A stretch of 64,000 bases of DNA from Verrucomicrobiia bacterium (GTDB lineage Bacteria > Verrucomicrobiota > Verrucomicrobiia > Limisphaerales > UBA11358), in assembly GCA_036490655.1 (NCBI GenBank), contig DASXDM010000016.1, positions 83,135-147,134 of the forward strand, written 5' to 3'. The translations under genes were made by a program, and so were the position numbers. The stretch's first letter is position 1, and every line of letters begins with the position of its first letter. The notes under the pieces are model-generated. The model was not told where the DNA came from. It worked only from the letters and a program-made list of their open reading frames with translations, and made no database searches. This document shows positions 9,062 to 62,317 of the stretch, piece after piece.

Positions 9062-9066
9062 TTTTA

Positions 9067-9100
9067 CGGCGGGGCAGGCATTTTGCCCGCCGGGTTTGTG
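9067..9100 (+). terminator. Weak hairpin plus T-rich tail after the GspK-like gene
   Basis: CGGCGGG(9067-9073)...CCCGCCG(9087-9093), a 7-bp stem with a 13-nt loop, followed by GGTTTGTG. Confidence 0.3.
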
Positions 9101-9286
9101 TAATAATCTGCCTGCATTGGCATGAATTTTGATAGTGATCGATAACTGACAGAACACAGCAGCGATGAAAGCGGCCTGTAGCCGCTGGCGGCAGCATTGG
9201 GTGGAGGGGGGAGGGCTGCCGGGATTGGACTGCTAAGTGTTCTGACATTTGGATGAAACTGTGATAGATTTTGAGTCATTTGACCT

Positions 9287-12200
9287 ATGCGTTCACGAGT
9301 GAAGATGTGGATCCTGTTGAGCCTGCTGGGCATTGGCGGCGCGTGGATCTTTTGGCATATGGAAAACGGGCACATGCTGAGGGCCGGGCGGCAGAGGCCT
9401 TTGCCGGTGATGTCTTTGGCCTCCAGCGCGCCCCGGTTGACGAAAGCGTCGCTGGCGCAAAAAGCGGCGCAGTTGACGGCCTCGCGGACCAATCTCTTTG
9501 CCTACCGGCTGAACAACACGGGGAAGACCCTGGAACAATTGTTGCATGACCCGCATGCGATCCTGCTGGAGAATGCGTTGATCGATTCCCGCCGTCCGTT
9601 GGGCCTGACATTTCCGAAGTCGTTGCAGCGGCAGGGCGATCCCGGGGCGTACCTCGTGCAGGCGCGGGGGGTGGACAGCGGCGCATTTCGCGCGATGCTG
9701 GCGGCCAACGGGGCGAAGGTCATCTCTTATATCCCCAACAATGCCTACCTGGTGGAAGCTTCGGCGGGGATTGCCGGCACGGTGGCGCAAAATCCGGCCA
9801 CGCAAGCCGTGTTGCCCTACGAGCCCTATTACAAGGTCCAATCTACGCTGCTGGGCGCGGCGACGGCCCAGACCATTTTACCGCGGAACGCGATCCTGAC
9901 GCTGGGACTGTTTCCGGACAACGCGGCGCAGACTATTTCGCAGATCCAGAACCTGGGGGCGCAGATCGTTTCGGAAGACAGTTCGCCTTTTGGGCCGGTG
10001 GTGCGGGTGATGCCGCCGACGGATTGGACCGCCCTCGCCGATTTGCCCGGGGTACAGATTGTTGAGCCGTCGCATACGCGTGTTCATGCCAATGATTTGA
10101 GCCGGGTGACCACAGGAGTATCGGTGGACACCCTGGTAGCGACCAATTACCTGGACCTGAGCGGTCTGAACGTGATGGTGGACGTGAACGACTCGGGCAT
10201 CGACCAGACGCATCCGGATTTTACATTGAACGGCAATGCCGCCTCCGGGCCGAGTGGTCCCACCCGGGTGACGGGTCAATTTGCGGGGGATTTGGTGGAT
10301 ACAGACGGGCATGGGACGTTTGTGGCGGGGGAGATCGCGGGTAACGGGAGCGAAAGTCATCCTCCGGGCGGTGTGAACGTCGGGGCGGCGGCGGAAGGCT
10401 CGGTGACCAACGCGGATTTCCGGGGCAAAGCGCCGGCGGCGATGTTATTTGCGGTGGACTTTCATGGCAGCGACAGCAATTTGCAGGCGGAGGCGGCGCT
10501 GACGAACGCATTGATCTCCAACAACAGTTGGGTCTATAGCGGGGACCAGACGTACGACCTGGCAGCGGCCAGCTATGATGCGGCGACGCGCGATGCGTTG
10601 CCGTATACGCAGGGGTCGCAACCGGTGTTGTTTGTATTTGCGGCGGGCAACGACGGTTTTGGGCAGATCGGGGGCAACAACAACACGGCAGACACCATTG
10701 ATTCGCCGGGGACGGCCAAGAATGTGATCACGGTGGGCGCGTTGGAAGAGGCGCGGAACATCACGAACTATGTGACTGTGGACGGGGTTTCCAACCAGGT
10801 ATGGGCGGGGATCACGGCCAATAATTTCCAGGTGGCGGATTTTTCGAGTTGCGGGAATGTGGGGATCGGGATGGAAGGGCAGTTTGGGCGTTTCAAGCCG
10901 GACGTGGTGGCGCCGGGGACCTTTGTCGTCTCGACGCGTTCCTCGGAATGGGACACCAACGCTTATTACAACCCGACGAACTATGATGACAGCATCCTGA
11001 CGAACCTGGTGGTGGGGGCGGGCCAGCTCGAATATTTCGGCCTGTCGATCCCGCAGAATGCGATCAGTGTGGAGATCGAGGCGCTGCCCTTCAATCCGGC
11101 GAACACCCTGTGGATCTATGCCAGCGACAGTGATTTTCCGGATCCGGCCAATCCGACCTCCGCTGATTTTTCTGAAACGAACGAGGTCCTGATCCCGCCG
11201 GACAATCCGCCCAACAGCACTTCGGCGACTTATTTGAGCGAGATCCAGGCGACGGTGTTGAACTACGCGATCGTCAATTCGAATGCGCAGGATGTGGCTT
11301 ACGACCTGTTCACGCAGATCGCGACGACGAACGACAACGGCGATTATTATGATGTCCTTTCGAACATGAACGACAGCCTGGGGCCGTATTACCGGTATGA
11401 GACGGGCACGAGCATGGCGGCGGCGGATGTCTCGGGGGTACTGGCGTTGATGCAGGATTACTTCACCAACCATCTGCAACTGCAGCCCAGCCCGGCGCTG
11501 ATGAAGGCGCTGCTGCTCAACGGCGCGCGACTGAGCGATGCCGAGCTCTACAACCTGCAGGTCAACAACACGATCAATTATGAGGGCTGGGGGCTGGTCA
11601 ACCTGCCGAACACCCTGCCGCCGGATATCACGACCAACGGGTTCAACGGCGCGGTGGCCTCCTCGATCTATTTCCAGGACCAGAGCCCGACCAATGCCCT
11701 GGCGACGGGGGACCTCCACACGTACACGCTGATTGCCCAGACCAACAATGAGCCGCTGCGCCTCACGCTGGCCTGGACCGATCCGCCGGGCAACCCGGTG
11801 GCCGCCATCAAGCTGGTCAACAGCCTCCAGCTCACGGTCACCAACACGGATAACCCCACCAATATCGTGGTCTATTACGGCAACGACATCGGGGAGGCCA
11901 GCGCCTTTAACACCGCGGAAAGTCCGACGAACCCGGTGGCCCCGGACACGATCAACAACGTGCAGACCATCATCATTCCCGAGCCGCTGGGCACCAACTA
12001 TACGATCACCGTCAAAGGTTACCGGGTGAATGTCAACGCGGTGGTCGAGCAGACCAACAACATCGTGCAGGATTACGCGCTGGTCGTCAGCAGCGGCGAT
12101 GGCGACGCGACGGGTTCCTTCACGGTCGTGGACCAGGGCACCGTCTCCAATCCGGCCGGGGACCAGGACATCCTGGCCATCGGCACCACGAACGCGCCGG

Positions 12201-49801: not shown

Positions 49802-49960
49802 GGGGACTATATACTTATTCACCCTTGGTTATTTTGGGTGAAATTTTCTTTTGTTCTTGACATGCCGCCACAGGCTGTCACGATGCCATTCTCCGCGACG
49901 GCGGGGTTAGAGAGGAAGGTGGTGCCAGATGAGGGTACTGTAGTTTTTTGTACGAACCAC

Positions 49961-49987
49961 GGGCCGCAAGACGTTGCGGCCCCTTTT
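49961..49987 (+). terminator. Perfect 9-bp hairpin plus T-tract inside the transposon's left arm
   Basis: GGGCCGCAA-GACG-TTGCGGCCC then CTTTT. The orientation fits a plus-strand transcript; its function is unclear. Confidence 0.35.
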
Positions 49988-50005
49988 GCTCTCTGGCACC
50001 AAAAT

Positions 50006-50131
50006 TCATGATGATTTCTTCTTGGGTTTTCGGGGTTTAAGTTTCCGTGCGCCGCTGCCGCAGGCGATACAGGTTAAAATACTGCTGAAGGTTCCCTTGA
50101 TTGGCTGGATGATTTTCTTCTTCTTTTTCAT
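50006..50131 (-). CDS. Candidate 41-aa basic micro-ORF translationally coupled to the transposase
   Basis: Minus-strand ATGA: the transposase stop (50130-50128) overlaps ATG 50131-50129. Translation MKKKKKIIQPIKGTFSSILTCIACGSGARKLKPRKPKKKSS. Confidence 0.25.
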   Translation of the reverse strand: MKKKKKIIQPIKGTFSSILTCIACGSGARKLKPRKPKKKSS

Positions 50132-51048
50132 GCTGTCAAACTTTCGTAAGTTAATTGACCAGTGTCGGCTGCGCTTTGAACTGCGCCGTGGAAAATTCTC
50201 TGCGGTGGATTCAATCGGTTGTTAAACCGGACAACAAACTCGTCAACGTAGCGTTGAAGGTGTTTCTTGCTCATGCTGTGATATGTTCCGTGATAACCTC
50301 GTTTGAATAAAGCCCAGAATGATTCGATTCCGTTGATGTGGGCTTTGCCGCGAACGTATTCTCCAACGCCATGTTGGACAACACCGCGTTTGTAAATTCT
50401 GCCAAGCCGGTTATAACCCATCCACTCGTCAGTATAAAGGGTGGCGCCGCGAGCCATGTTCGATTTGAGTTGATAGTGGAGAGTGTCCATACCTGTTGAT
50501 TCGATAACTTGGGCGCGGACTTTGCCAGTTCGCGTGCGGAGACCAAAGATGGGAACCTTTCCATACGTTCCCCTGCCTTTCATTATCTCTCGCCGACGGC
50601 GACTATGCATGTTTTTGGCTTTGCCGCCGATGTAAGTTTCATCAGCTTCGACTTTACCGCGCAGCTTGCGGGTTTCCTGCTTGTGAGCCTTGCGAATCCG
50701 GTGCGCCATAAACCAAGCGGTTTTCTGCGTAACTCCCAGATGTTTGGAAAGTTGGATTGACGACATTCCTTTGGCGCTTGATGAAAGCAGGTAAATTGCC
50801 ATAAACCATTTTCGGAGTGGTAATTTACTGTCTCCAAATATCGTACCGGTCTTGATAGAAAAGTCTGACTTGCACCCGGCGCAGCGGTACCGTTTACCGC
50901 CGGAGAATTTATAAATCTCGGCATGTTCACAGTACGGGCAATATTCCCCAGCGGCGAATCGGATTTTGGCAAATTCCTTACGACAGATTTCCTCAGTATG
51001 GAAATAATCCATAAATTCCACGAGACTTTTGAATTTGAATTTTATCAT
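50128..51048 (-). CDS. IS1595-family (ISXO2-like) transposase
   Basis: N-terminal zinc ribbon CPYCEH...YRCAGCKSDFS, then LPLRKWFMAIYLLSSSAKGMSSIQLSKHLGVTQKTAWFMAHRIR, and DDE region ...VEADETYIGG...LYTDEWMGY. Confidence 0.9.
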   Translation of the reverse strand: MIKFKFKSLVEFMDYFHTEEICRKEFAKIRFAAGEYCPYCEHAEIYKFSGGKRYRCAGCKSDFSIKTGTIFGDSKLPLRKWFMAIYLLSSSAKGMSSIQLSKHLGVTQKTAWFMAHRIRKAHKQETRKLRGKVEADETYIGGKAKNMHSRRRREIMKGRGTYGKVPIFGLRTRTGKVRAQVIESTGMDTLHYQLKSNMARGATLYTDEWMGYNRLGRIYKRGVVQHGVGEYVRGKAHINGIESFWALFKRGYHGTYHSMSKKHLQRYVDEFVVRFNNRLNPPQRIFHGAVQSAADTGQLTYESLTA

Positions 51049-51090
51049 TTTTGACTTTAGGTTGTTATTTAAGTTTTACCAAGTAACGAA

Positions 51091-51354
51091 ATGCAAATTT
51101 TATTCGTCTGCGAAAAATCCGAAAATGCGTCAGAAGACGCTTGGAATAGATTCGTATCGAAAGTTTCAGATATTCCAGAAAATAAATCCTCGCCATCGCT
51201 ACGTAGTATGGAGGTTCTGTCACTAATTCAGAAAGATTACGACGGACTGCTTCTGAGCAAAATGATTTCCGCCGCCGAAGTTGCGCGGTTCCCATATAAA
51301 TTGATTTTTATTAAGGAATATTCGGAGAAGGATTTTAACCCGTCTCACCTGTAA
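51091..51354 (+). CDS. Hypothetical protein (87 aa), transposon passenger
   Basis: ORF only, in low-GC passenger DNA. Confidence 0.3.
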   Translation: MQILFVCEKSENASEDAWNRFVSKVSDIPENKSSPSLRSMEVLSLIQKDYDGLLLSKMISAAEVARFPYKLIFIKEYSEKDFNPSHL

Positions 51355-51357
51355 AAG

Positions 51358-51858
51358 TCATTTTAGTAAGATTAATTCTGTTGTGATTGGAATTTTATTG
51401 GTCACAGTCACGCCATATACCCAGGGCGTACCATAGTCGTAAAGTTCAAGCTGTCTGCCGTCCACATTCACAACGCCAATACGCAATGCGTATGCTTCAA
51501 TTTTCTGACCTTCCGCCACATCAATTATAGCGTCTGGATAATTAGTTATTGCGACTGTTTTCGTGTCGAACGGTTTCGCGTTTGGGTCAAATTCAAACGC
51601 CTCTGCCTCTGCAATAACCAACCCGTCTTCAACATTGTTAACATTCCCTAATATGGTATAAAACCCAGGAAAGCCGTTGCGGGTTTTAATTAAATCATCG
51701 AAATTAAACACCTTATTTCCAAATCTTCGGAAATTATCCGGCGCTTTATACCAATTTGTTGTGAGTGCAGTTTTGAAGATGGTATTCGTCGTAAATTGGT
51801 TGGTTTGGGATTTTGTTGAGATTGCAGACAACAAAAGTATTGCCAGAATAGTTTTCAT
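51358..51858 (-). CDS. Hypothetical secreted protein (166 aa), transposon passenger
   Basis: MKTILAILLLSAISTKSQ signal-like N-terminus. The start at 51858 lies 11 nt after the upstream gene's stop. Confidence 0.5.
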   Translation of the reverse strand: MKTILAILLLSAISTKSQTNQFTTNTIFKTALTTNWYKAPDNFRRFGNKVFNFDDLIKTRNGFPGFYTILGNVNNVEDGLVIAEAEAFEFDPNAKPFDTKTVAITNYPDAIIDVAEGQKIEAYALRIGVVNVDGRQLELYDYGTPWVYGVTVTNKIPITTELILLK

Positions 51859-51868
51859 TTTGAGCCTG

Positions 51869-52234
51869 TTAAGGTTTTCCAGATTCATCCATAGTAGATG
51901 GTTGATTGACGGCCAAACGAAGGTCGGCAACATCCAAATCGACCATATTGATTCCATTTGTGAGAATGCTGTAATCGGAATCCTCTACCGAAGCCAAACT
52001 GGCCTGACAACTTGACATAAGCTCAAAGTTGCTTTCCTGGGATTCTGACTTAGTTTCCAAAAACTGGACGCGCTGGATTAGCTGTGAAAGTTCGTTTGTT
52101 AAATTGTTTACAGTTTCGACTCCTTGGGTTGATTGTTTTTTATCGGCGTTTAAATCTGGCGTCCTGAACTCTGATACAATCAATGCTGTCAATGCCGCTA
52201 TGATTCCACTGATTATGTAATTGGTGACTTTCAT
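51869..52234 (-). CDS. Hypothetical N-terminally anchored coiled-coil protein (121 aa), transposon passenger
   Basis: MKVTNYIISGIIAALTALIVSEF anchor. ATG at 52234 lies 20 nt downstream of RNA-motif copy 1. Confidence 0.5.
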   Translation of the reverse strand: MKVTNYIISGIIAALTALIVSEFRTPDLNADKKQSTQGVETVNNLTNELSQLIQRVQFLETKSESQESNFELMSSCQASLASVEDSDYSILTNGINMVDLDVADLRLAVNQPSTMDESGKP

Positions 52235-52253
52235 ATTTGTTTCGTTTTGAAGC

Positions 52254-52404
52254 GGGAAAAGAAAAGGCGTGCAGCCAGCACACCCGATTAGAGGGCTGCA
52301 ACGCCCTGAAGAAAGATGCACCAAGCCACACGCCAACTGGCGTGGAGCCGGTCAAGGGGTTCTTCGAGAAATGTTGCAGTTTCTAATCGCCCTTACCGCT
52401 TCAC
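52254..52404 (-). ncRNA. Conserved structured-RNA-like motif, copy 1 (unassigned family)
   Basis: Minus-strand sequence is nearly collinear with 57536-57685. Long-range pair CGAUUAGA/UCUAAUCG. Terminal hairpin GGUGUGC-UGGCU-GCACGCC followed by UUUUCUUUU. Confidence 0.5.
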
Positions 52405-52671
52405 TAAAATGTCAATTTAAGGATATTGGAAGGGTTGACTCAGGCAAGCTCATTTTGTTATTGACAAGGCGTTTTGAAACACCAAACTGCGGCTGTCCGC
52501 GCAAGGGTGAACGCGGAGTGAATTTGGGCGGGGTTGGAAAAACGTTTTGCTCATTCGCATAACGCTTATTTTCTTATGACGAGAAAGTAATTACCAACCC
52601 CGCCCGCCTAAAATCATACTTTGACCCGTTTTGTGGTCAAGGGTGAATAGGTATATAGTTCCCCAAAGAAA

Positions 52672-52961
52672 TGCCGCCCGGCGCAGCCGATTTCTTCGGC
52701 GCGCTCATGAAAACCGGCTACATGATCCCGCTGATTTTCGCGACCCAAACCCTCGGCGGCGCCTTGCTCCTGCTGAATTGTTTTGTGCCGCTGGCCCTTG
52801 CGTTGCTCGCGCCGGTCATCGTCAACATCATCCTCTTCCACCTGTTCATCGCGCCTTCGGGGATCCCGATCGCATCCGTCGTGGTGGCGCTGGAACTCTA
52901 CCTGGCCTGGTCGTATCGGCGGTTTTATCTGCCGATGCTGGCGTGCCGGGCCAGGCCCTGA
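52672..52961 (+). pseudogene. 3' fragment of the interrupted DoxX-family gene
   Basis: Joining 49684-49801 to 52672-52961 restores one 135-codon frame ...FIPQPKEMPPGAADFFGALMKTGYMIPLIF...LLAPVIVNIILFHLF..., collinear with the paralogue (FLPMPPMQGPGAAFMGAMFETHY...GPVVVNILCFHTF). Confidence 0.8.
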
Positions 52962-54024: not shown

Positions 54025-54678
54025 TCAGATATTGAGAAAAACCCGTTCTTTGGGAAAACGGACTTTCGGCGCTGTCGCATATTTATCCGTCGGCAACCGG
54101 TAGCCGAGCGTCGCGATCACGCCGCTGGCGAACCCTTGCGCTTTCAAACCAAGGATTTCATCGTATTGCGCGCGGTCAAATCCCTCCATCGGACAGGCAT
54201 CGATGCCGAGCAAAGCGGCGCTGGTCAAAAGATTGCCCAGGCCGATATAAACCTGGTTGCGCGCCCAGGCATTGCGACCGGCCTCGTCCTGGCTTTGCAC
54301 GATGCCGCCGACCAGCATGCCGCGTAACGGCGCCAGCGCTTCAACCGGAATCCCCTGCACTCCGGCGATATGTTTGACATGGGCATCCACGTCTGCCTCG
54401 TTGAAATTGGTTTTTGAGGCGAATACGACCAGATGCGAAGCATCGGTGATCTGCGCCTGCCCGTAAGATGCCGGCTTAAGTTTTGCGCGAACGACGGGAT
54501 CGGTGACGACGATAAATTTCCACGGCTGTAAACCGCCGCTGGAGGGTGTCAGCAACAATGCTTCCTCCAGCGTGGCCCAGTCCTGGGAATTGATTTTTTT
54601 GTTAGGATCAAACTGTTTGGTGGCGTAGCGCCAATTGAGCTGATGGATCAATGTTTCCGGAGTGATACTTGTGTTCAT
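54025..54678 (-). CDS. Nitroreductase-family NAD(P)H oxidoreductase
   Basis: LNWRYATKQFDP...LLLTPSSGGLQPWKFIVV...GIDACPMEGF. Confidence 0.9.
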   Translation of the reverse strand: MNTSITPETLIHQLNWRYATKQFDPNKKINSQDWATLEEALLLTPSSGGLQPWKFIVVTDPVVRAKLKPASYGQAQITDASHLVVFASKTNFNEADVDAHVKHIAGVQGIPVEALAPLRGMLVGGIVQSQDEAGRNAWARNQVYIGLGNLLTSAALLGIDACPMEGFDRAQYDEILGLKAQGFASGVIATLGYRLPTDKYATAPKVRFPKERVFLNI

Positions 54679-54763
54679 GATCTAATTTTGTTTCTTTGTT
54701 TTTTTATTTAAATTTCGGCTGGAAAAATTGAAGGCAACCGGTTTCCCGATTGCCTTCATCTGT

Positions 54764-55459
54764 TCAGTTCAAGTCGAACAACAAAACCTGTGACGGTTTG
54801 TTGGCCGAGAGTTCCAATTTCGTTTCCTGGCTCACCGCCGCCGCGTCCCCGGCGGAAAGCGTCTTGCCGTTCAACACGACTTCGCCTTCAGCGACATGGA
54901 CCCAGGCATTGCGGTTGGCCGCAAGCGCATGCGCGGTCTTCTGTCCCGCATCCAATTTCGCCAGCCACAGGTCTGCGTCCTGATGGATGGCGATCGAGCC
55001 ATCGCGGCCCGTCTTGCTCGTCATCAGGTGCAATTGGCCCGTGGGCGTGTCGCGCAGGGTCTTCTCCGCATACCGCGGCTTGAGACCCTTGGCATCGGGC
55101 ATGATCCAGATCTGCAACAGGCGCACCGCCTCGTCTTTCGACGGATTGAACTCGCTATGTTGCACCCCGCTGCCGGCGGACATGTATTGCAGGTCGCCCG
55201 CGCGGATGATACTGCCGTTGCCCATGGAATCCTTGTGCTGGAGCGCGCCACTAAGCACATACGTGACGATCTCCATATCGCGATGCGGATGGGCGCCAAA
55301 GCCCTGCCCCGGCATCACCAGGTCGTCATTGATCACCCGCAGGCTGCGGAACCCCATCCAATTCGGATCATAATAGTCCGCAAAACTGAAGGAATGATAA
55401 GTGTCCAGCCAGCCATGTTCGGCGTGGCCCCGTTCATTTGCTTTTCGTATAGTCATCAT
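54764..55459 (-). CDS. Pirin-family protein
   Basis: RKANERGHAEHGWLDTYHSFSFADYYDP...GFGAHPHRDMEIVTYVLSGALQHKDSMGN. Confidence 0.9.
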   Translation of the reverse strand: MMTIRKANERGHAEHGWLDTYHSFSFADYYDPNWMGFRSLRVINDDLVMPGQGFGAHPHRDMEIVTYVLSGALQHKDSMGNGSIIRAGDLQYMSAGSGVQHSEFNPSKDEAVRLLQIWIMPDAKGLKPRYAEKTLRDTPTGQLHLMTSKTGRDGSIAIHQDADLWLAKLDAGQKTAHALAANRNAWVHVAEGEVVLNGKTLSAGDAAAVSQETKLELSANKPSQVLLFDLN

Positions 55460-55468
55460 GGAAAGACT

Positions 55469-55912
55469 CTACCGCGCGCCTGTGATCCTGTGAAATATCA
55501 TGTTTCTTGCCTTAGTATAACTTAAAGGTATACTGCCCGTCCACATTGGTGCGTGGTAGGGTGAGCATGTGGAATTTAAAACCAAAGAATTGTCCGGATC
55601 GACTCGAAGAATTGGAAGCGAGTTTGCGTTTGTATCGATTGGAGAGATTGGGTTTATAACTGACAACAAGGGGCTGGCAGATTTAATCATGGCTTTGAAT
55701 CGGGTTCTGGAGGAGGACGCCGCTTTCCCATTCGTGGAAGAAACCTGTTTGTCCCAAACCAATCTTCCGCAGGATACTTCATCAAAAAAAACCCGCTGAT
55801 GTAAAAGAATTTGCTCCTCCGCCTCTGAATCATTCGTTCCCGGTGGCAGATCAAAATAAGTTCCAGTCTCATCGTCCACATAACGTTGTTCATTTATTTT
55901 CCGTAACTTCAT
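55469..55912 (-). CDS. Hypothetical protein (147 aa); the 3' end runs across the transposon's left terminus
   Basis: ORF only. Its last ~20 codons lie outside the IR boundary, so the native C-terminus is uncertain. Confidence 0.3.
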   Translation of the reverse strand: MKLRKINEQRYVDDETGTYFDLPPGTNDSEAEEQILLHQRVFFDEVSCGRLVWDKQVSSTNGKAASSSRTRFKAMIKSASPLLSVINPISPIDTNANSLPILRVDPDNSLVLNSTCSPYHAPMWTGSIPLSYTKARNMIFHRITGAR

Positions 55913-55924
55913 TCCTCAAATAGT

Positions 55925-56959
55925 CTAGCGAGCAGAAAGAAGTTCTTCAACCGTCCAAACGTGGTCAGTCAGTCCTGCCGCCATTGCTGGCGTCATCCCG
56001 ATAGCACTGTGAACACGGCAGAAGTTAAAATGAGCAACGAACAAGGCAACAGCATGGCGATGGTTTTCGGTCTTCTTTGAGAAATTGATAGTCCGACGAA
56101 CAAACCTGCGGTTAAACGTCCTCAGGCTGAGGTTTGTCCGCTCACAATGGCCGATGGTGGCGTGTTTCATGTCAGGATAGCCAATGCGAGGACTGCGATA
56201 CACTTTGACCAGTTTTGGGGCGAAGAAGACGCGGTTTCCTGTATAACGTGGATCGGTCCTGAAACGCTTGGTCTCCGTCGCGTAATGGCAGTTGTCACCC
56301 AGAATGTCCTTAACCGCCCCAGCGCTTCCATGAAGTGCCACATATCCTCTGAATGAGTCGGTGGTGAGTTGGAACCGATTGGTGATGCGTGAGCCTAAAT
56401 CCTTCAAAAACCCTTCCGTTTCCTCGCCTGTGCGTTTTCCGACCCTATAACTGACAATCAGCTTCTCGTCCTTGGCGACCGCCAGGAACGTCCACATTGA
56501 ACCGCGCTCTGGGTCATCCTCATTCTCACCGTTGGGCTTCTGTTTGATATAAGAGAACACCTCGTCGCATTGGACATATGGAATGGTCAGGTTTCGGACT
56601 TTGGAATCCAGCAGACGGGCGCAATGCTCTCCAGCAGATTCAAGGATGCGTAAAACCGTATCTTCGTCCACACATGCCAGCCGGCCAGCCGCACGAATAC
56701 CGACCGTCTCAGCCAGCATTGAGACTATCTGAGCCGCCTTGGCGCGATCTGTGCGTATGCCATCCAAAGGCTGCGTTTCACTGAAAGACTTGGCACAGCG
56801 GATGCACTTGAACCTCTGGACAGTCCCATTTCGATTCTTGAAACGACCACACTTTTTCACCTTTCCGCTACAACAATGACAGTTCAATTTCTCCTTTCTT
56901 AATATCGTTGACTTATGTTTAACATAAGTTAGTCTCAATGCAAGACTTTTGTTAAACAA
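55925..56959 (-). CDS. IS1-family-like transposase (fused zinc-finger + DDE form)
   Basis: CHCCSGKVKKCGRF...FKCIRCAKSF zinc-finger. HTH-like region. C-terminal HCERTNLSLRTFNRRFVRRTINFSKKTENH...FNFCRVH, typical of IS1 InsB. No in-frame ATG near the 5' end: the track start is a TTG, and an alternative TTG at 56887 is preceded by AAGGAG. Confidence 0.65.
   Translation of the reverse strand: MFNKSLALRLTYVKHKSTILRKEKLNCHCCSGKVKKCGRFKNRNGTVQRFKCIRCAKSFSETQPLDGIRTDRAKAAQIVSMLAETVGIRAAGRLACVDEDTVLRILESAGEHCARLLDSKVRNLTIPYVQCDEVFSYIKQKPNGENEDDPERGSMWTFLAVAKDEKLIVSYRVGKRTGEETEGFLKDLGSRITNRFQLTTDSFRGYVALHGSAGAVKDILGDNCHYATETKRFRTDPRYTGNRVFFAPKLVKVYRSPRIGYPDMKHATIGHCERTNLSLRTFNRRFVRRTINFSKKTENHRHAVALFVAHFNFCRVHSAIGMTPAMAAGLTDHVWTVEELLSAR
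56911..56929. promoter_or_regulatory. 9-bp perfect inverted repeat ACTTATGTT-T-AACATAAGT between the divergent transposase and RHH genes
   Basis: Read directly from the sequence. Lies in the 5' region of the IS1-like transposase gene. Confidence 0.35.
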
Positions 56960-56963
56960 AACT

Positions 56964-57146
56964 ATGAAAAATAAAATGGGCAGACCTCAAATTGTGCCAG
57001 GTGAGTCAAAAAGCATCCTGATTGGGGCAAGGTTCTCCCCTGACGAATCAAAGAGAGTTCACACCGCTATTGGCAAGTCTGGGAAAACGAAGTCAGAATG
57101 GGTCAGAAAGACCTTGCTTTCGGCGGCTGGCAAAGATACTGTCTAA
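56964..57146 (+). CDS. Small RHH/MobC-like DNA-binding protein (60 aa)
   Basis: MKNKMGRPQIVPGESKSILIGARFSPDESKRVHTAIGKSGKTKSEWVRKTLLSAA: GRP...beta-strand...two helices, like CopG/MobC-type proteins. Confidence 0.45.
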   Translation: MKNKMGRPQIVPGESKSILIGARFSPDESKRVHTAIGKSGKTKSEWVRKTLLSAAGKDTV

Positions 57147-57535
57147 GCATCTCGGCGACCCCAAGTTGCCTGTCGGCGGACGAAATGAACTGTGCAAAAG
57201 GAAATTTCGTCCGCCGTTTTATTTTCTTGGCGACTGATTCTGGCGTCATCAGCCCCCGCGTTATATCCAGGCCATAAAAGTCCCGCTCCTCTCGCCGGTT
57301 GAAACCCGTTGTAAGACTGGCGGGCGGCAATCAGAGCGGTAAATTACTTCATTGATGTTTTACGCTTTCAACAGCGCATTACCGATCAAATCGGCAACAA
57401 TCAGCATCCTCTCATTGTTCTGATTTATGGTCAATAATTTATTAACGTAAAGTGCTTATACAAAGCGGATTGTATAGAGCATTGGATGGGCTTGACTATC
57501 ACACTCAAACCGGATTGTATGGTTATTGAAATTTA

Positions 57536-57685
57536 GTGAAGCGGTAAGGGCGACTAGAAATTACAACATTTCCGAGAGAAACTCCCCTGCCACGCTCCAC
57601 GCCCATCGGGCGTGTGGTTTGGCGCATCTTTCTCAAGGGCGTTGTAACCCTCTAGTCGGGTGTGCTGGCTGCACGCCTTTTCCCT
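57536..57685 (+). ncRNA. Conserved structured-RNA-like motif, copy 2
   Basis: GTGAAGCGGTAAGGGCGACTAGAAA...TCTAGTCGGGTGTGCTGGCTGCACGCCTTTTCCC. Pair CGACUAGA (57551-58) / UCUAGUCG (57651-58). Terminal hairpin 57659-57677 plus a U-tract. Confidence 0.55.
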
Positions 57686-57730
57686 GTCTTGCTTCAATAA
57701 TAAATGACAGAAAACACATAAAATCTTAGA

Positions 57731-57869
57731 GCACACAGGAACTATCACATTCTTAAAAGAAGACTCTGCTCCAACGCGGGAAACCGGGCTTGGCGTGTAA
57801 TTGCAATGCATTCTTCTTGGGCTGTGATAGGCCTCTGTGGGGTGTGTTCGGTTGCACGCCATTTTTATT
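57731..57869 (+). ncRNA. Conserved structured-RNA-like motif, copy 3 (tandem with copy 2, more diverged)
   Basis: CACAGG (57734-39) / UCUGUG (57834-39). Hairpin GGTGTGTTCGGTTGCACGCC (57841-60) plus ATTTTTATT. Ends 20 nt before ATG 57889. Confidence 0.45.
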
Positions 57870-57888
57870 GCTCTGATGGAAGGAAGTT

Positions 57889-58086
57889 ATGAAAAAGATA
57901 TTGGTCGCTATTACCTGCATGCCGTTGATCCAAGGTTGTGTCGTTCAAAGAATAATGGATTCTCAGGATCGACAACATTATTCGGAATACCTGGAACAAG
58001 TGGATCAAACCAATTTGGAGCGCGAGAAATCCCACCTGCCCGACGAGAAGCCGATGGCGTTCGATGAATGGGATGGTAAAAAATAA
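57889..58086 (+). CDS. Small lipoprotein (65 aa)
   Basis: MKKILVAITCMPLIQGC lipobox. GGAAGGAAG Shine-Dalgarno-like sequence 3-11 nt upstream. Confidence 0.55.
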   Translation: MKKILVAITCMPLIQGCVVQRIMDSQDRQHYSEYLEQVDQTNLEREKSHLPDEKPMAFDEWDGKK

Positions 58087-58093
58087 GGGACAT

Positions 58094-58453
58094 ATGCCAT
58101 CCGATTTCCATTTTGCCACAGCCATGATAGAACTGGTCGAGAAAAGACCCTCTCAGGGACTTCTGGCTCGATGCTATTCCGAAGCCGAAGGAGATGAAGC
58201 TAAGGCAAGGGCAAAATACGTTGCCATGCGAGCCAAGGAAATTGAGGAGCAGGAAGAAGCCGCCATCAAACAGTATGAGCAACAGGTAAAGAGAAAGGAA
58301 TCGGAACGCCAAAAGGTGATTAATTCTTTCAATTTTGAAATGTTCCAAAAAGAATACAAGCGTGAAATACCACTCCGCTATTATGGCCGAAAAGAGCAAC
58401 AGGATATGTTCAAAGAATGGAGAAATCGGAAGCTGAGAGAAATGGAGGCGTAA
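58094..58453 (+). CDS. Hypothetical protein (119 aa), charged coiled-coil C-terminal half
   Basis: ATG at 58094 preceded by AAGGGA. Tight packing with its neighbours. Motif GLLARCYSEAEGDEAKARAKYVAMRAKEI. Confidence 0.45.
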   Translation: MPSDFHFATAMIELVEKRPSQGLLARCYSEAEGDEAKARAKYVAMRAKEIEEQEEAAIKQYEQQVKRKESERQKVINSFNFEMFQKEYKREIPLRYYGRKEQQDMFKEWRNRKLREMEA

Positions 58454-58455
58454 AA

Positions 58456-58791
58456 ATGGAAGAGTCAAAACAGACAGATACCGATCGGATAAAACATCTT
58501 GAGTCTGTGAATAGAGCACTCAATCGAGATATTGAGTGGTTAAAAGGCAAGATTGAAATGGATGATAAGGCAAAAAAAGATGCTAAAAAGAGTGTGGTTA
58601 ACGGGGCATTGGTAATCATCATGATGATTGTTGGCCTTATCGGATGGTCGGCAATCCTTTACTTCTGCATTGCAAATTTTAGCCCATTCCCAGCGGTAAT
58701 GGTTTTGTTCGTATTATCCTGGTTGTGGTCATGGATTTGCTACGTGCCACTTCGGAAAATTGATAATAAACAAAAGGAAAACACAAAATGA
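58456..58791 (+). CDS. Hypothetical membrane protein (111 aa)
   Basis: Coiled-coil N-terminus, then two hydrophobic helices (GALVIIMMIVGLIGWSAILYFCIA; AVMVLFVLSWLWSWICYV). ATGA overlap with the next ORF. Confidence 0.45.
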   Translation: MEESKQTDTDRIKHLESVNRALNRDIEWLKGKIEMDDKAKKDAKKSVVNGALVIIMMIVGLIGWSAILYFCIANFSPFPAVMVLFVLSWLWSWICYVPLRKIDNKQKENTK

Positions 58792-59006
58792 ACAACCTGC
58801 AATGTTACGACGAAATTACCGACCACACAATCCATTCAGTTTACCAAATATGGTCGCATAAACAGTTATCAAATAGTGAGCAGGTTCAGGTGATTGGGAA
58901 GAAATCACTTCACACCATCCTGAGAACTGACATCTTTTATCGAGGTCAACCTGGCTACCAGATTGTGGAAATCATCGCGGGCGACGGCTGGGAGGGCGCG
59001 GAATAA
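58788..59006 (+). CDS. Hypothetical protein (72 aa)
   Basis: ORF coupled by ATGA to the upstream gene. Its 3' end overlaps a convergent 80-aa ORF (58905-59147, minus strand); which of the two is real is unresolved. Confidence 0.3.
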   Translation: MNNLQCYDEITDHTIHSVYQIWSHKQLSNSEQVQVIGKKSLHTILRTDIFYRGQPGYQIVEIIAGDGWEGAE

Positions 59007-59181
59007 ATCGGCGGCAATCATTGCAGCGACATGCTCGGGCATCTTAAATGCCCGAAGCTCATTTATGGATGAGCCGAGGAGCAGTGTATATTCTCCGCCG
59101 TTATTTCTGACGGCGTGCACGTTTGCTTGGGTTTCAGGAACATTCATGGCATTGATTGGTGGTTTTAATTATGTTGTTTCA

Positions 59182-59469
59182 ATGAATCTCAAGAACGGCC
59201 TCTTTTGGTATCGTGATGAGGCGACGTATCTCCGCTTCCGAGAAATTATTGATGACAAGGATCAACTTGTGTCTCCTTACTCTGTTTGGGTTGCAAAGGC
59301 TGAGAAATTTATTGAGGAAAAGGCCGAGCAGGGGACTTTTCTTGTCAAAATCAAAGCTGACCCCGATGAGTTTGTCTCGTGGTGTAATATCAATTCCAGA
59401 AAACCTGACGGGAGAGCCAGGATGCTTTTTGCAATAGAGAAGGCACGCCATATAGGAGGCAATGGATAA
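59182..59469 (+). CDS. Hypothetical protein (95 aa)
   Basis: MNLKNGLFWYRDEATYLRFREIIDDKDQL...DPDEFVSWCNINSRKPDGRARMLFA. Internal ATG of the track ORF 58963-59469. Confidence 0.4.
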   Translation: MNLKNGLFWYRDEATYLRFREIIDDKDQLVSPYSVWVAKAEKFIEEKAEQGTFLVKIKADPDEFVSWCNINSRKPDGRARMLFAIEKARHIGGNG

Positions 59470-59820
59470 TTTGCCTGAAAATGTTACCCCATCCCGTTCA
59501 TCGGAGATTTCAAATATTTTTGCCGCCACAGCACCAATGTGGACGGGCAGTATACTTAAAGGTATGGTGTCCATCTAGATTGGTGCTGGAATTTATCGCT
59601 TGCGTTTCCCACGCCGTGGCTCAGCTTTGGAACGTTAGTCTGATTCCAATACCAATGAAAAATATCGTCCTCGCAATCGGTTGCTGGCTATTGAGCTTGT
59701 TCTTTTTCTATTTCGGAATTATTCACTTCATAAAACTTACACGGACATCCCCTGATGCCACGGTGTAAAATAGGTTTATACAGTACCCCTGCATCCCGGT
59801 ATTATATAGGGTGTTAGACC

Positions 59821-60901
59821 GGCCAAATAAAACTCGCAAGTTGCTTATTTTAAGTTGCTTAGACAGCGAATGTCTAAGGCTAATTGTTAAAATTCAGGCA
59901 TGATTAAGAGTAAAAAACAGTTTGAGTCTCAAAAGGGGCAAAGCTTGCCTAACATGACTGAATACGAAGCCAGAATGCATCTTGAAGGTATTCGGTGGCC
60001 AAATGGGCCAGTTTGTCCTCAATGCAAAAGTTCAAACGTCTATGAAATGCAAGGAATGAGCATCCGTCCTGGTTTACGCCGTTGCCGAGAATGCAAAAAG
60101 CAATTCACTGTAACGGTTGGGACCATTTTTGAAGATTCACACCTGCCTCTGTCTATTTGGATTCAAGCTTTTCACCTGATTTGTGCCAGCAAGAAAGGAA
60201 TTTCATCGTTGCAGCTTCAAAGAAATCTTGGATTAGGATCATACCGGACTGCTTGGTATTTGTCCCATCGCATCCGTTTAGCCATGAAAACAAACCCTAA
60301 AAATTTTACTGGAACTGTTGAGGTGGATGAAACTTACGTGGGAGGAAAGCCTCCGGCTGGCATTAAATCAAAACGCGGTCGTGGAACTTACAAAACTCCG
60401 GTCGTCGTAGTCGTTGAGCGCGATGGTAGAGCTTATTCCAGACCAGTTGACCGCGTTACTTCAGCTAATCTCAGGAATGTCATCAGAGAATGCGCTGCCG
60501 ATGCTTCAGCAATTCACACTGACGAATTTGCAAGTTATCGGAGTTTGAGCAAGCACTTTGCTGCTAAACATGAATTTGTTAATCACGGTGAAGGAGAATA
60601 TTCCAGAAACGGAGTGAACACCAATACAGCTGAAAGTTACTTTGCCCTGCTGAAACGTGGAATCCGTGGAACTTTTCATCATATCAGCAAAAAGCATTTG
60701 CACCGTTACTGCAACGAGTTTGAATTTCGATGGAACAGCCGAAAGCACCTAGATTTAGACAGACGGGATTGGGCATTAAAGCACACCGAAGATAAATTGT
60801 TGAGATTCCGTGAACTGGTTGGAAATTGAGTTCTTAAATAAGTAACGAGGCGTCCTGGCCTTTTATCCTAAGTATGGAACTGTTGAGATTACGATTTGGC
60901 C
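59821..60901 (+). mobile_element. IS1595-family insertion sequence, second and unrelated copy (~1.08 kb)
   Basis: Imperfect terminal repeats GGCCAAATAAAACTCGCAAGTTGC (59821-) versus reverse complement of the right end GGCCAAATCGTAATCTCAACAGTTCC (-60901). No convincing target duplication seen. Confidence 0.5.
59900..60829 (+). CDS. IS1595-family transposase
   Basis: CPQCKSSNVYEM...RRCRECKKQFTVTVGTIFEDSHLPLSIWIQAFHLICASKKGISSLQLQRNLGLGSYRTAWYLSHRIR; VEVDETYVGG; IHTDEFASY. Confidence 0.9.
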   Translation: MIKSKKQFESQKGQSLPNMTEYEARMHLEGIRWPNGPVCPQCKSSNVYEMQGMSIRPGLRRCRECKKQFTVTVGTIFEDSHLPLSIWIQAFHLICASKKGISSLQLQRNLGLGSYRTAWYLSHRIRLAMKTNPKNFTGTVEVDETYVGGKPPAGIKSKRGRGTYKTPVVVVVERDGRAYSRPVDRVTSANLRNVIRECAADASAIHTDEFASYRSLSKHFAAKHEFVNHGEGEYSRNGVNTNTAESYFALLKRGIRGTFHHISKKHLHRYCNEFEFRWNSRKHLDLDRRDWALKHTEDKLLRFRELVGN

Positions 60902-60997
60902 TTTTACAGTCGTCGTTTTCAACAGTTCCGGAATAAATCCTTACGGAGTGGGGGCCGAGCCTCGTTACACAAATTTAGCCCAAGTCCTGCTTTATGT

Positions 60998-61372
60998 CTA
61001 TTTTCCATCTTTTTCTTTGTCCCATCCAATTTTAAATCCAGCCTTATAGCCATTCATCCAATCTTGGCGGTCTCCTGCATTATCAAATTTCATGTCAGCC
61101 GTATCACGACGGCCTTTTGAATCAAATTCTTCATCGGTTGGATAAGAATCTCCTCGATTATAGGCAGCTATTCCATCAACTGCTCCAATCCATGCGCCGG
61201 ACTCAAATACGCTGTTTGTACCAGATTGTGACGTTTGGTCAGATGAATTAGTATTTTGGTTGGATTGAGACGTAGTGCTCTGGTCAGGCAATAACGAACC
61301 AATCAAAATAAGAAGTGTAAAACTGACAATGACTCCAACCACAATTTTAGCCCAAAGAGGCAATTTTTTCAT
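60998..61372 (-). CDS. Hypothetical N-terminally anchored S/T/N-rich protein (124 aa)
   Basis: MKKLPLWAKIVVGVIVSFTLLILIGSLL anchor. ATG at 61372 lies 41 nt downstream of RNA-motif copy 4. The longer track ORF reads through the motif. Confidence 0.5.
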   Translation of the reverse strand: MKKLPLWAKIVVGVIVSFTLLILIGSLLPDQSTTSQSNQNTNSSDQTSQSGTNSVFESGAWIGAVDGIAAYNRGDSYPTDEEFDSKGRRDTADMKFDNAGDRQDWMNGYKAGFKIGWDKEKDGK

Positions 61373-61412
61373 ACATTGAACCCTTTCTGGATGATTAGCG
61401 ATTGGAAGATGA

Positions 61413-61552
61413 CAGGAAAAAGGCGCGAACCTGACGCACCCAGCTAGAGGCACTTGGAAGAGCCCGCCACAAGACACGCCAAGCCGCGCCCAGTGAGGGC
61501 GTGACTCGGACGGGTTTGTGGTATGAAAGTTTCCAAGTTTTCTAGCCACCCG
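61413..61552 (-). ncRNA. Conserved structured-RNA-like motif, copy 4 (most diverged)
   Basis: Minus strand: GGCUAGA/UCUAGCU long-range pair. Terminal hairpin GGUGCG-UCAGGUU-CGCGCC plus UUUUUCC. Shares CUAGAAA, CACGCCC, UUGGCG, CUCUAG and CGCCUUUU blocks with the other copies. Confidence 0.45.
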
Positions 61553-62233
61553 TGACCGACCTACGCTAAATTGTTATGTCGGCCATAACCATCCCAAGAG
61601 GGTGGAAATTGTCAACAAATTTTTGACCCTGAGCGAGAAAGTGAATTTATGAGAACAGTTATCGTATTCGCAGAATTGCCAAAAATGACCGATACAGTCT
61701 CAACCATAACGAGATGGCAAGATTTTTTGAAAAATGCAGAAGGTTCCTACAGGCCAACCGCAGAAAGTGCCCACCCGACCATAAATCTGTGGCAGCTACC
61801 CTTAAATAGTGGATTGCCATTCTTGGCCAAGTTATTTCAGTTCTCGGAACTTTATCAAATTCCCATTCATGCCCTAATCTTGGACGAGCCTCCAGAGTGG
61901 ATAAAATATCCCCCAACCAGTTAAGAATTTTGCTTTCTTTCATGAAGACCAGAACACTTTCCGTCATTCACCCTGACAGACTCTCAGGATGCCAGTATAA
62001 CAAAAGTTTTATGAAGTGAATAATTCCGTTCTATTTTATCCGAAACACCATCCAAATGGGATATGTGCGGTCACGCGGTGGGCTGGTTTTAACGAGAAGC
62101 AAAAACCCATTCCAGTTTTGGGCGGGAGTTGTAGCCTTATTTTTAGGTGCTGCTTTTCTCATTGTGTTCGGATTAATCGTCATTTTCGGAAAGGTTAAAC
62201 TATGAGATTACATCAGCCGCGCTGGAGCCAACA

Positions 62234-62317
62234 TCAGATTGGACTCGCAAGTAACTCCTCAACCGTCCAAACATGGTCTGTGAGTCCTGATGCCATTGCC
62301 GGTAAAGCGCTTGTGGA
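62234..62317 (-). pseudogene. 3'-terminal remnant of an IS1-like transposase gene
   Basis: Minus-strand translation ...PAMASGLTDHVWTVEELLASPI* parallels the C-terminus of the intact copy (...TPAMAAGLTDHVWTVEELLSAR*). DNA CTCAACCGTCCAAACATGGTC..GAGTCCTG..GCCATTGC aligns with 55947-55992. Confidence 0.55.

Follow-up and report, generated by a model that had tools for sequence, protein, structure and literature searches.

Anatomy of the locus

The DNA analysed here (the window) is a stretch of 64,000 nucleotides from a Verrucomicrobiia bacterium. At 55529-59554 it contains a 4026-bp element that is present in single copy and low in GC (46.3% vs. 54.6% for the genome); its features and those of the adjoining DNA are listed in Table 1. 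The initial annotation had described a 4-kb IS1-like transposon with an 8-bp target duplication and with terminal inverted repeats that match perfectly over about 25 nt. Repeats and duplication were found to be exact, and together with the IS1-family transposase and the passengers they support this description. The sequence GTATACTGCCCGTCCACATTGGTGC at 55528-55552 has a perfect reverse complement at 59531-59555 (25/25).

With up to three mismatches allowed, the terminal repeat was matched twice in the window, compared to 0.00 matches expected from 100 shuffles. A search of the whole 3.97-Mb genome found the repeat restricted to this locus, the other matches being an adjoining diverged third copy and a few chance matches with 5-7 mismatches; the objection that it might be a generic repeat thus failed. 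A 21/26 look-alike of the terminal repeat sits within a TPR gene. No second copy of the exact element was found anywhere, and the best relative is only 75% identical, so that recent mobility is deduced rather than observed. Two metagenome contigs (JGI) carry the element in the same arrangement, with no empty-site allele among them.

Table 1. Coordinates of the element, its contents and the adjoining DNA
Feature	Position	Strand	Remarks
Target duplication CTTAAAGG, left copy	55521-55528		identical to 59555-59562
Left terminal inverted repeat (IRL) TATACTGCCCGTCCACATTGGTGC	55529-55552	+	perfect complement of 59531-59554
76-aa ORF, uncertain gene	55569-55799	+	in the 372-bp slot between IRL and transposase stop
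Single-ORF IS1-family DDE transposase, 320 aa	55925-56887	-	likely TTG start at 56887 behind AGGAGA
17-nt inverted repeat, divergent transposase/RHH promoter region	56913-56961		88% complementary
Ribbon-helix-helix (RHH, NikA-like) gene, divergent from transposase	56964-57146	+	Pfam PF21983, 26.4 bits, E 8e-6 (cut-off 27)
Structured leader RNA, copy 1	57551-57686	+	model R1, 134.6 bits; 3' end is hairpin + U tract
Structured leader RNA, copy 2	57732-57869	+	R1, 107.1 bits; 19 nt upstream of first cargo gene
65-aa probable lipoprotein (MKKILVAITCMPLIQGC...)	57889-58086	+	lipobox read by eye; no family match
119-aa charged, coiled-coil-like protein	58094-58453	+	no credible family match
111-aa protein, N-terminal coiled coil + C-terminal membrane segments	58456-58791	+	weak sub-threshold Pfam matches only
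72-aa protein	58788-59006	+	start overlaps previous stop (ATGA); no family match
107-aa protein, phage-associated family phrog_4753	59146-59469	+	E 3.5e-18
Right terminal inverted repeat (IRR)	59531-59554	-	perfect complement of IRL
Target duplication CTTAAAGG, right copy	59555-59562		doubles as 8-bp spacer before next element's end
IRL' TATGGTGTCCATCTAGATTGGTGC, terminal repeat of older decayed IS1-family copy	59563-59586	+	directly after right duplication
IS1595-family cargo element, 2315 bp	59714-62028	+	perfect 25-nt inverted repeats
Last ~20 codons of older copy's transposase	62243-62302	-	81% identity repeat; collinear with IRL'

The CTTAAAGG repeat opens a longer 33-nt direct repeat of 82% identity (55520-55552 vs. 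59554-59586), since the right duplication is followed by a further IS1-type end. While the duplication on both sides stands as annotated, the DNA to the right is thus the end of an older copy and not plain host DNA. This end, IRL', is identical to IRL in 18/24 positions and to the repeat of a related element (L008) in 22/24. IRL' and the collinear remnant of a transposase 3' end support the older copy, which has been split by an IS1595-family insertion of ~2.3 kb and then truncated. The IS1595-family element has its own 8-bp duplication (TTCTATTT at 59706-59713 and 62029-62036) and its own transposase at 59900-60829.

The contents expected from the initial annotation (a fused transposase, a divergent RHH gene, tandem RNA motifs and small genes) are all present. 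Homologues of the RHH gene occupy the same position at 12 related loci, and the inverted repeat between it and the transposase is a candidate operator. The 76-aa ORF is annotated as a gene in the JGI contigs, and family searches with it gave no match. On the opposite strand, a 147-aa ORF (55469-55912) extends out through IRL.

The leader RNA has two long-range helices with covariation, and copy 2 has a terminator-like site at 57841-57860. A cmscan search of 54500-61500 (E<=1) gave no Rfam match to the leader RNA, only a chance snoRNA match elsewhere. Its strong covariation shows that the RNA is real, and it is widespread in the genus. A further copy at 61413-61548 (minus strand) precedes the gene at 61372-60998 inside the neighbouring IS1595-family element.

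The cargo consists of five small genes (57889-59469). The annotated operon of small genes is thus present, but its members are orphans except for the last, and the nine homologues of this phrog_4753 protein are all hypothetical. Among related elements the cargo is wholly different, while transposase and RHH gene are kept. Passenger-carrying IS1-family elements are common in soil Verrucomicrobia, and a size of 2.6-4.1 kb is the norm among the IS1 elements of this Verrucomicrobial clade, so that the length of 4 kb is less noteworthy than first thought.

Transposase and family assignment

The transposase is matched by Pfam model PF03400 (DDE_Tnp_IS1) with 25.9 bits (gathering cut-off 24.1) and by NCBIfam model NF033558 (IS1 family transposase) with 75.2 bits (E 6e-21), which does not reach the curated cut-off of 100. 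Judged by its sequence, it is a distant member of the IS1 family and not an equivalog of classical IS1. More than 1400 homologues were found, many of them named IS1 family; identity to plasmid transposases annotated as IS1 family is only ~23-39%. Residues C4, C6, C7, C29, C32, D109-E110, D178 and E250-R251-N253 are invariant in 22 homologues and all kept here, and the conserved D/D/E residues would have catalytic roles.

The region 55925-56887 gave no match to the IS1595 models PF12762, PF12760 or NF033547; the neighbouring IS1595 transposase matches IS1595 models with 138/217 bits. Lacking a match to an ISXO2-like DDE domain or an IS1595 zinc ribbon, the element was ruled out as a member of the IS1595 family. 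The classical IS1 layout (insA/insB' frameshift, 0.7-1.2 kb, no passengers) was rejected on account of the one ORF, the 4026 bp and at least seven other genes. A compound transposon was rejected too, as the element has a single transposase gene and is bounded by bare 24-nt repeats, not by two complete IS copies.

The tip of the element is TATACTG; GG precedes it on the left only, where it is supplied by the duplication. The tips of relatives are GGTAATG, GGTCATG or GGTGTTG, and the consensus for the tips of IS1-family inverted repeats is GGnnnTG (ISfinder). Target duplications in relatives are 8 bp (L008, L010, L014, L034, L039, L186, L187, L193) or 9 bp (L182) long, which disposes of the objection that the duplication might be missing in other copies.

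The element thus shares with the IS1 family a DDE transposase matched by the Pfam and NCBIfam models and equipped with an N-terminal Cys4 zinc finger, terminal inverted repeats of ~25 nt, an 8-9-bp target duplication and, in its clade relatives, the tip GGTNATG. Unlike classical IS1 of E. coli, it is five times longer, with ~2.7 kb of passenger DNA flanking the transposase on both sides, and it has one ORF instead of insA/insB' with a programmed -1 frameshift, a divergent RHH companion and the tip TATACTG. The IS1 family as listed in ISfinder includes single-ORF and long "ISMhu11-type" subgroups.

Transporter IS (tIS) have been defined for the IS1595 (and IS66) families (Siguier et al. 2009; 10.1101/2021.05.26.445724; PMC7986276). 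Like these, the element combines one transposase, inverted repeats and a target duplication with passengers unrelated to transposition: its ends and duplication enclose the cargo, and the cargo is swapped between relatives. It differs from IS1595-family tIS in its IS1-type transposase. Genuine IS1595-family tIS adjoin it, and RHH-type and leader-RNA modules are common to both.

The pirin/lysR insertion site and end-to-end stacks

The insertion interrupts the divergent lysR promoter that lies upstream of pirin, entering between its apparent -35 box (TTGCCT) and its apparent -10 box (TATGCT), and the -10 box resembles the element tip (TATGGT / TATACT). At the identical nucleotide, IS1-like ends were found in two metagenome contigs and, among 30 genomes of the same genus, in 7; their repeats differ, and both orientations occur. 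The pirin-side flank CATGTTTCTTGCC, followed by 9 nt, 8 nt and then an IS1-type end, is seen in the window and at L083, L086, L103, L106, L109, L111, L008 and L026; the site is empty at L085, L098, L105 and L110. Within the intact elements, repeats and duplication agree in 25/25 and 8/8 positions (window), 25/25 and 8/8 (L008) and 30/31 and 8/8 (L026). The terminal repeats of window and L026 are only 13/24 identical, and the L008 element has the opposite orientation to that of the window. Due to this internal perfection, the strong divergence of repeats between genomes and the inversion of L008, these are read as independent insertion events.

In the window, the intact element abuts the terminal repeat of its older relative in the order end, 8-bp spacer, end. 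Such 8-bp-spaced end pairs occur five times (window, L024, L026, L039 and L014), and in them integration exactly beside a resident terminal repeat is seen, by comparison only. The spacer and target word of the L039 stack is GAGAATTT, and L014 has a 24-bp two-tip remnant with three copies of CTGAATCT; both target sequences are unrelated to the pirin/lysR site. Orientation is readable in two stacks, which are both head-to-tail. The L026 remnant agrees in layout and orientation with the window's older copy.

In IS30, integration beside a resident IR is specific for the IRL-IRR orientation (PMC9333248). As in IS30 and IS911 (PMC9333248), the new copy lies beside a resident repeat and forms an IRR-spacer-IRL junction with orientation specificity, in which the spacer is as long as the element's own target duplication. 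However, IS30 and IS911 belong to other families, with copy-out-paste-in transposition, 2-3-bp spacers and highly reactive junctions (PMC9333248), whereas the spacer in the window is 8 bp long, the partners are diverged relatives and the junctions have persisted. The likeness is thus one of working and not of membership.

Target choice and cargo control

The best reading of these data is that target choice is end-directed, in analogy to the IR-targeting of IS30 and IS911. The transposase would bind the 24-nt terminal repeats, and the ends would be joined to a target cut with an 8-bp stagger, giving rise to the CTTAAAGG duplication. The older copy would have landed first, between the -35 and -10 boxes of lysR, and the new element would then have integrated at the outer edge of this relative's terminal repeat, re-using its 8-bp flank. 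Transposase on a resident or mimicked end may steer strand transfer to the bond at the tip of that end; such a choice would lead to head-to-tail stacks and make one promoter a recurrent landing pad. The RHH protein probably represses the shared transposase/RHH promoter region, and the two tandem pseudoknotted, terminator-ended leader RNAs most likely gate the five presumably envelope-type passengers by attenuation.

We are confident that 55529-59554 is one intact IS1-family insertion sequence with passengers, a transporter IS, in what we read as an end-directed landing beside an older relative. More tentatively, and at somewhat less than even probability, we propose that the lineage recognises transposon ends or tip mimics as targets, re-uses the 8-bp duplication and stacks head-to-tail across species, its cargo being gated by an undescribed, widespread attenuator RNA as in the co-resident IS1595 elements.

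A rather unlikely alternative is that the recurrence is driven by the target. The transposase would prefer the promoter/operator of lysR itself, where a LysR-type box (ATAAC-N5-GTTAT) forms a near-palindrome that the bound regulator may bend, and TAT tips would rebuild most of the site at the junction and allow repeat insertion. Dyad and -35/-10 pattern are both present at the empty sites, and the left junction does not begin to depart from the native sequence until the fifth base past the duplication. In addition, the simple insertion at L008 hit the native site in the absence of a resident end, so a preference for sequence or promoter structure may play a part here or even be enough. In classical IS1, hot spots have reportedly been linked to resemblance to the ends of IS1 as well as to DNA bent by IHF. 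However, stacks also formed at the unrelated target words of L039 and L014, and the simple insertions of more distant relatives in the wider clade share no common target motif. A target preference overlaps with the end-directed reading and does not exclude it.

It is very improbable that the abutting elements are a vertically inherited tandem dimer or product of unequal crossing-over, and the occupied sites of other species orthologous relics. Inheritance is clear for the remnants at L114-L117, which have in common a ~265-bp derivative with decayed duplications. The agreement between the older copy and the L026 remnant would fit as well, as would the junction spacers of IS1 circles and dimers, which measure 6-9 bp. 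However, the intact copy is perfect while its neighbour's repeat differs at 6/24 positions and is split and truncated, and the two elements thus differ in age. The intact pirin-proximal elements of window and L026, each internally perfect, have unrelated cargo besides their diverged repeats, L008 is inverted, and empty sites exist within the same clades. That the repeats are chance or generic ones in a low-GC island with no discrete mobile unit in it has next to no probability in spite of the single copy and the look-alike in the TPR gene, as chance would produce no matches, the repeats enclose an intact IS1-type transposase, relatives are built alike and have 8-9-bp duplications, and comparison with empty sites, where flank homology ends exactly at the repeats, refutes the idea.

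Small elements that move accessory genes with a single transposase have been poorly catalogued, and the curated literature consulted restricts the term "transporter IS" to IS1595 and IS66, while IS1-type versions are the rule in this genus. What is unusual is that the element landed flush with the terminus of an older, decayed relative, in a promoter that was repeatedly hit by related elements in other species. Steering of elements to each other's ends, if true, would explain mobile-DNA islands at fixed spots, such as the one which here separates a LysR regulator from its pirin operon, and would make end-directed targeting simple to test in a family other than IS3 and IS30. The leader RNA that these elements share is a candidate for a new class of regulatory RNA that travels with mobile cargo.

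Intact element and its relatives

A repeat search of the window sequence identified GTATACTGCCCGTCCACATTGGTGC at 55528-55552 and 59531-59555 as a perfect 25-nt inverted repeat, with CTTAAAGG immediately outside both arms. The element covers 55529-59554 (4026 bp), and its GC content is 46.3%, versus 54.6% for the genome. Reading the tip as GG... would give a terminal mismatch at the right end and reduce the duplication to 4-5 bp; it is also ruled out by the related contig L008 (flanks GC and CT), in which the repeat begins at TAT. With up to three mismatches, the terminal repeat occurs at the two window sites only (0.00 expected from shuffles). When the whole draft genome (3.97 Mb, 40 contigs, 92% complete) was searched, the 4.3-kb stretch holding the element was found as a single copy, and a scan at seven mismatches returned only the two arms, a diverged third copy just right of them and a handful of weak look-alikes. 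The best of these look-alikes (21/26 at 28159-28184, with about 0.03 such matches expected by chance) was rejected as an IS end: it lies within an 888-aa TPR-repeat gene, with no transposase or mobile-element context nearby. Neither further copies of the element nor an empty allele were found in this genome, and two JGI contigs have the identical arrangement. The window sequence, the repeat search and the whole-genome repeat scan confirmed the initial annotation, which had placed and described an IS1-like transposon with cargo here. We regard the element as a real, intact IS1-family cargo transposon that is probably functional.

Features of the IS1-family element and its surroundings (window positions)
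Feature	Position	Strand	Remarks
IS1595-family element	49802-52672		splits DoxX gene
Leader RNA copy	52257-52389	minus	
Target duplication, left	55521-55528		CTTAAAGG
IRL	55529-55552		left end of element
Slot between IRL and transposase gene			372 bp, with one uncertain small ORF
Transposase gene	most likely start TTG 56887	minus	right of the 372-bp slot
Divergent control region			76 bp, with 17-nt inverted repeat
Ribbon-helix-helix (RHH) gene	56964-57146		followed by strong hairpin and T tract (by eye)
Structured (leader) RNA, two copies	57551-57686, 57732-57869		
Probable lipoprotein gene	57889-58086		
Charged coiled-coil-like protein gene	58094-58453		
Coiled-coil and membrane protein gene	58456-58791		
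72-aa protein gene	58788-59006		
107-aa protein gene	59146-59469		
IRR	59531-59554		right end of element
Target duplication, right	59555-59562		CTTAAAGG
IRL' of older copy	59563-59586		TATGGTGTCCATCTAGATTGGTGC
IS1595-family insert	59714-62028		2315 bp
Transposase matching IS1595 models	59900-60829		
Leader RNA copy	61413-61548	minus	
Transposase remnant of older copy	62243-62302	minus	last ~20 codons

The transposase most likely starts at a TTG behind AGGAGA, like its closest homologues, and would comprise 320 aa in a single frame. It scores 25.9 bits against the Pfam model DDE_Tnp_IS1, just over the gathering score of 24.1, and 75 bits against the NCBIfam model for IS1 family transposases, under the curated cut-off of 100. 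The IS1595 models do not match it; they strongly match the neighbouring transposase. More than 1400 homologues were found, many of which JGI names IS1 family, and plasmid-borne relatives with 23-39% identity carry the same annotation. All residues that are invariant in an alignment of 22 homologues are kept in the window protein (the cysteines of the N-terminal zinc finger, the D-E pair, the TTD aspartate and the E-R-x-N motif), and the gene therefore looks functional. We place the element in the IS1 family as a distant member with a single ORF, distinct from classical IS1.

Transposases of this type are present in 82 of the 151 sampled genomes of the genus, and the organisms that carry related elements are Verrucomicrobiia MAGs. 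The size of the element, which had been considered noteworthy, turned out to be ordinary in the clade, since every related element for which both ends could be located is long. The ISfinder IS1 table has an ISMhu11-type subgroup of up to 4.6 kb. A further relative (L025, 405-3764, 3360 bp, transposase 70% identical) has perfect 25-nt repeats and no detectable target duplication.

Related elements with target duplications
Locus	Length	Target duplication
L008	3626 bp	CTTTTAGC
L010	3823 bp	GAACAGTT
L014 / L048	2924 bp	CTGAATCT
L026	3239 bp	CCTTTTAG
L034	2610 bp	GTTTCCCG
L039	3783 bp	GAGAATTT
L182	3001 bp	TTGCCGGCG
L186	2659 bp	TTCCGTTT
L187	4112 bp	CTTTCGAC
L193	3172 bp	CAGAACTG

The RHH gene is found in the same divergent position in 12 related loci, which makes it a companion gene rather than cargo. 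The cargo genes of different elements are unrelated. Examples from relatives include a membrane-tailed dCTP-deaminase-like protein, a ClpP-like protein, a PRTase-GNAT fusion and the PADLOC candidate defence protein PDC-M04A. The proteins encoded by the five tightly packed small cargo genes of the window had no tblastn match in any related locus or element. The last cargo gene (107 aa) matches phrog_4753, a family of unknown function, and its homologues are all hypothetical; the other cargo genes gave only sub-threshold noise in Pfam, NCBIfam, PHROGs and PADLOC.

Leader RNA and IS1595-type elements

A covariance model was built from the four window copies of the structured RNA that precedes the cargo. 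Searching the genome with this model revealed a fifth copy on another contig, C2, inside a 4.2-kb IS1595-type cargo element with an RHH gene, so that all five copies in this genome lie inside IS1 or IS1595 cargo elements. Within the genus, 71 of 141 genomes have a match to the model. Exclusive association with such elements holds for 5/5 copies here but had to be rejected for the relatives, where an IS1 or IS1595 transposase lies within about 3 kb at only 7 of 20 sampled loci; what is observed is strong enrichment near these transposases, not exclusivity.

Comparison across copies shows that the leader RNA is genuinely structured. In 38 aligned copies, two long-range helices persist through 28 sequence variants of the outer and 16 of the inner helix; the mean contiguous Watson-Crick runs are 7.0 bp (outer) and 7.7 bp (inner), compared with 3.5 and 4.6 bp for partners exchanged between copies. 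A pseudoknot results, as the inner helix has its 3' strand in the loop of a GGG/CCC stem. As an alternative, a conserved hairpin (CCACGCC/GGCGTG) can pair with the 3' half of the terminal hairpin, which is followed by a U tract. This layout resembles that of an attenuator or riboswitch-like leader, and the RNA may well be a control element of the window cargo. Rfam had no match for it. The genes downstream are diverse but often encode lipoproteins or membrane proteins, and 13 of the 27 that were called begin with a hydrophobic or lipoprotein-type signal.

The element on C2 (C2:27240-31450, or L128 3241-7451) is a fourth cargo element. Its 25-nt repeats are 96% complementary, and the flanking direct repeat is apparently just 6 bp (GAAGGG). 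It carries a divergent RHH gene like that of the IS1-type element and a 328-aa gene, and its leader RNA precedes a gene for a zinc-ribbon/membrane protein. The element in the DoxX gene, already seen in the initial annotation, has similar ends (GGGGACTATATAC...) flanked by CAAAGAAA, with a right boundary that is ambiguous by one base. RHH and leader-RNA modules are common to the IS1-type element and the co-resident IS1595-family elements.

Landing site between pirin and lysR

What had been missed is that the right flank of the intact element is the end of another element. IRL', which directly follows the right CTTAAAGG, is identical to IRL at 18 of 24 positions, and the CTTAAAGG "duplication" is thus the head of a 33-nt direct repeat. 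Its close match to the perfect repeats of the L008 element, with a difference at only 2 of 24 positions, marks IRL' as a relative's true terminal repeat. About 2.7 kb further right lies the end of a second IS1-type transposase gene, which is collinear with IRL' once the intervening insert is discounted. This insert is a complete IS1595-family cargo element inside the older IS1-type copy, with perfect 25-nt inverted repeats (CGGAATTATTCACTTCATAAAACTT), an 8-bp duplication (TTCTATTT), a leader-RNA copy and a gene for a small S/T/N-rich anchored protein. The order along the locus is therefore pirin, the intact IS1-type element, 8 bp, the old IS1-type element, ..., lysR, the old element being both truncated and split by the IS1595-type element.

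The closest non-self transposase (75% identity) lies in the L008 element, which is inserted at the same nucleotide, upstream of a pirin gene with 80% identity and with lysR on the other side. We compared the sequence upstream of pirin in 29 further genomes of the genus and found the flank CATGTTTCTTGCC + 9 nt + 8 nt to be conserved. In four genomes the site is empty (L085, L098, L105, L110): the flank continues straight into TATGCTC..., and the lysR start codon follows 10-19 nt past this heptamer. The window and six genomes (L083, L086, L103, L106, L109, L111) have an IS1-type end at the exact position, with the consensus [T/C]AT[A/G]GTG...AGATTG[G/T]TGC. The metagenome contig L026 has an end at the same position, and L108 a partial one at this site. 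No shared target motif was visible in 10 simple insertions from the wider clade.

A consensus scan across the left junction of the window gave TTGCCT-16 nt-TATACT, and the empty sites have TATGCT in this place. The insertion point is therefore the last base before the apparent -10 box of the putative divergent lysR promoter. It also falls within a LysR-type dyad, ATAAC-N5-GTTAT (L094, L097; by eye). The stack sets lysR 7.5 kb from the pirin operon and, judged from the consensus, would split the lysR promoter. Promoter consensus matches straddle the left junction (55507-55543). One hints at a -35/-10 pair recreated by the junction and directed into the element, with host TTGCCT as -35 and the tip TATACT as -10; a second could read out of IRL toward pirin, and both are suggestive only.

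Some occupants of the site are inherited relics. Four genomes (L114-L117, from G033, G073, G013 and G027) have a common MITE-like derivative of about 265 bp in the pirin-lysR intergenic region, built from a pair of IS1-type ends plus the final 57 codons of a transposase; its duplications have decayed, with 6-8 of 8 positions still matching. Three of these genomes share a conserved lysR-side end, but the pirin-side end is different in every genome, a pattern suggesting that the latter was replaced repeatedly. L113 is a chimera of 430 bp whose two ends differ. Intact elements, however, cannot be relics. Their repeats and duplications are internally perfect or nearly so (25/25 and 8/8 in the window and in L008, 30/31 and 8/8 in L026) but diverge strongly between genomes (13/24 for the window and L026, with unrelated cargo); in addition, the L008 element has the opposite orientation to the window copies, and empty and occupied sites are both found within one flank-sequence group. 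We infer that this single nucleotide position was hit in at least three or four separate events.

End-to-end stacking and target choice

The arrangement of end, 8 bp and end is not confined to the window. In L026, an intact element on the pirin side is followed by CTAAAAGG and a remnant laid out and oriented like the old copy in the window. L024 has the same arrangement, as has L039, there at the unrelated target word GAGAATTT. In L014/L048 (about 7694-7733), the right duplication of the element, CTGAATCT, is followed by a 24-bp remnant that consists of two IS1-type tips only (GGTAATGT...ACATCACC) and by a third CTGAATCT. These are five cases among about two dozen visible ends, with a chance expectation of essentially nil, and end-to-end stacking appears to be general. 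The two stacks with readable orientation (window and L026) are both head-to-tail. In L039, the 3783-bp element and the extra end that abuts it are also nested within a perfect pair of 27-nt inverted repeats spanning 6.6 kb (2887-9463).

The reading best supported by these data combines ordinary DDE transposition, in which the target is cut with an 8-bp stagger, and end-directed target choice. The duplication of the new element is exactly the 8 bp that had flanked the resident end, so that one of the strand-transfer sites falls on the bond at the resident tip. This would be the bond normally addressed by a transposase bound to that end. The native lysR site agrees with this reading and may act as a tip mimic, its TATGCT box resembling the tips TATGGT and TATACT, and after a first hit the junction would present a true end. 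IS911 inserts beside sequences that resemble its own ends. IS30 targets inverted repeats, forming IRL-IRR junctions with orientation specificity, and integrates new copies at a resident end as proposed here (PMC9333248). The main rival is a preference for the target sequence or promoter structure alone, which explains L008 and may contribute, but leaves the stacking at unrelated words unexplained. That the abutting elements were formed together as tandem dimers is unlikely, given that the partners are of different age and have different repeats and cargo.

To the description of the element as an IS1-like cargo transposon, our analysis thus adds a recurrent landing site at the same nucleotide, end-to-end stacking suggestive of end-directed targeting, and RHH and leader-RNA modules that it shares with co-resident IS1595-family elements.
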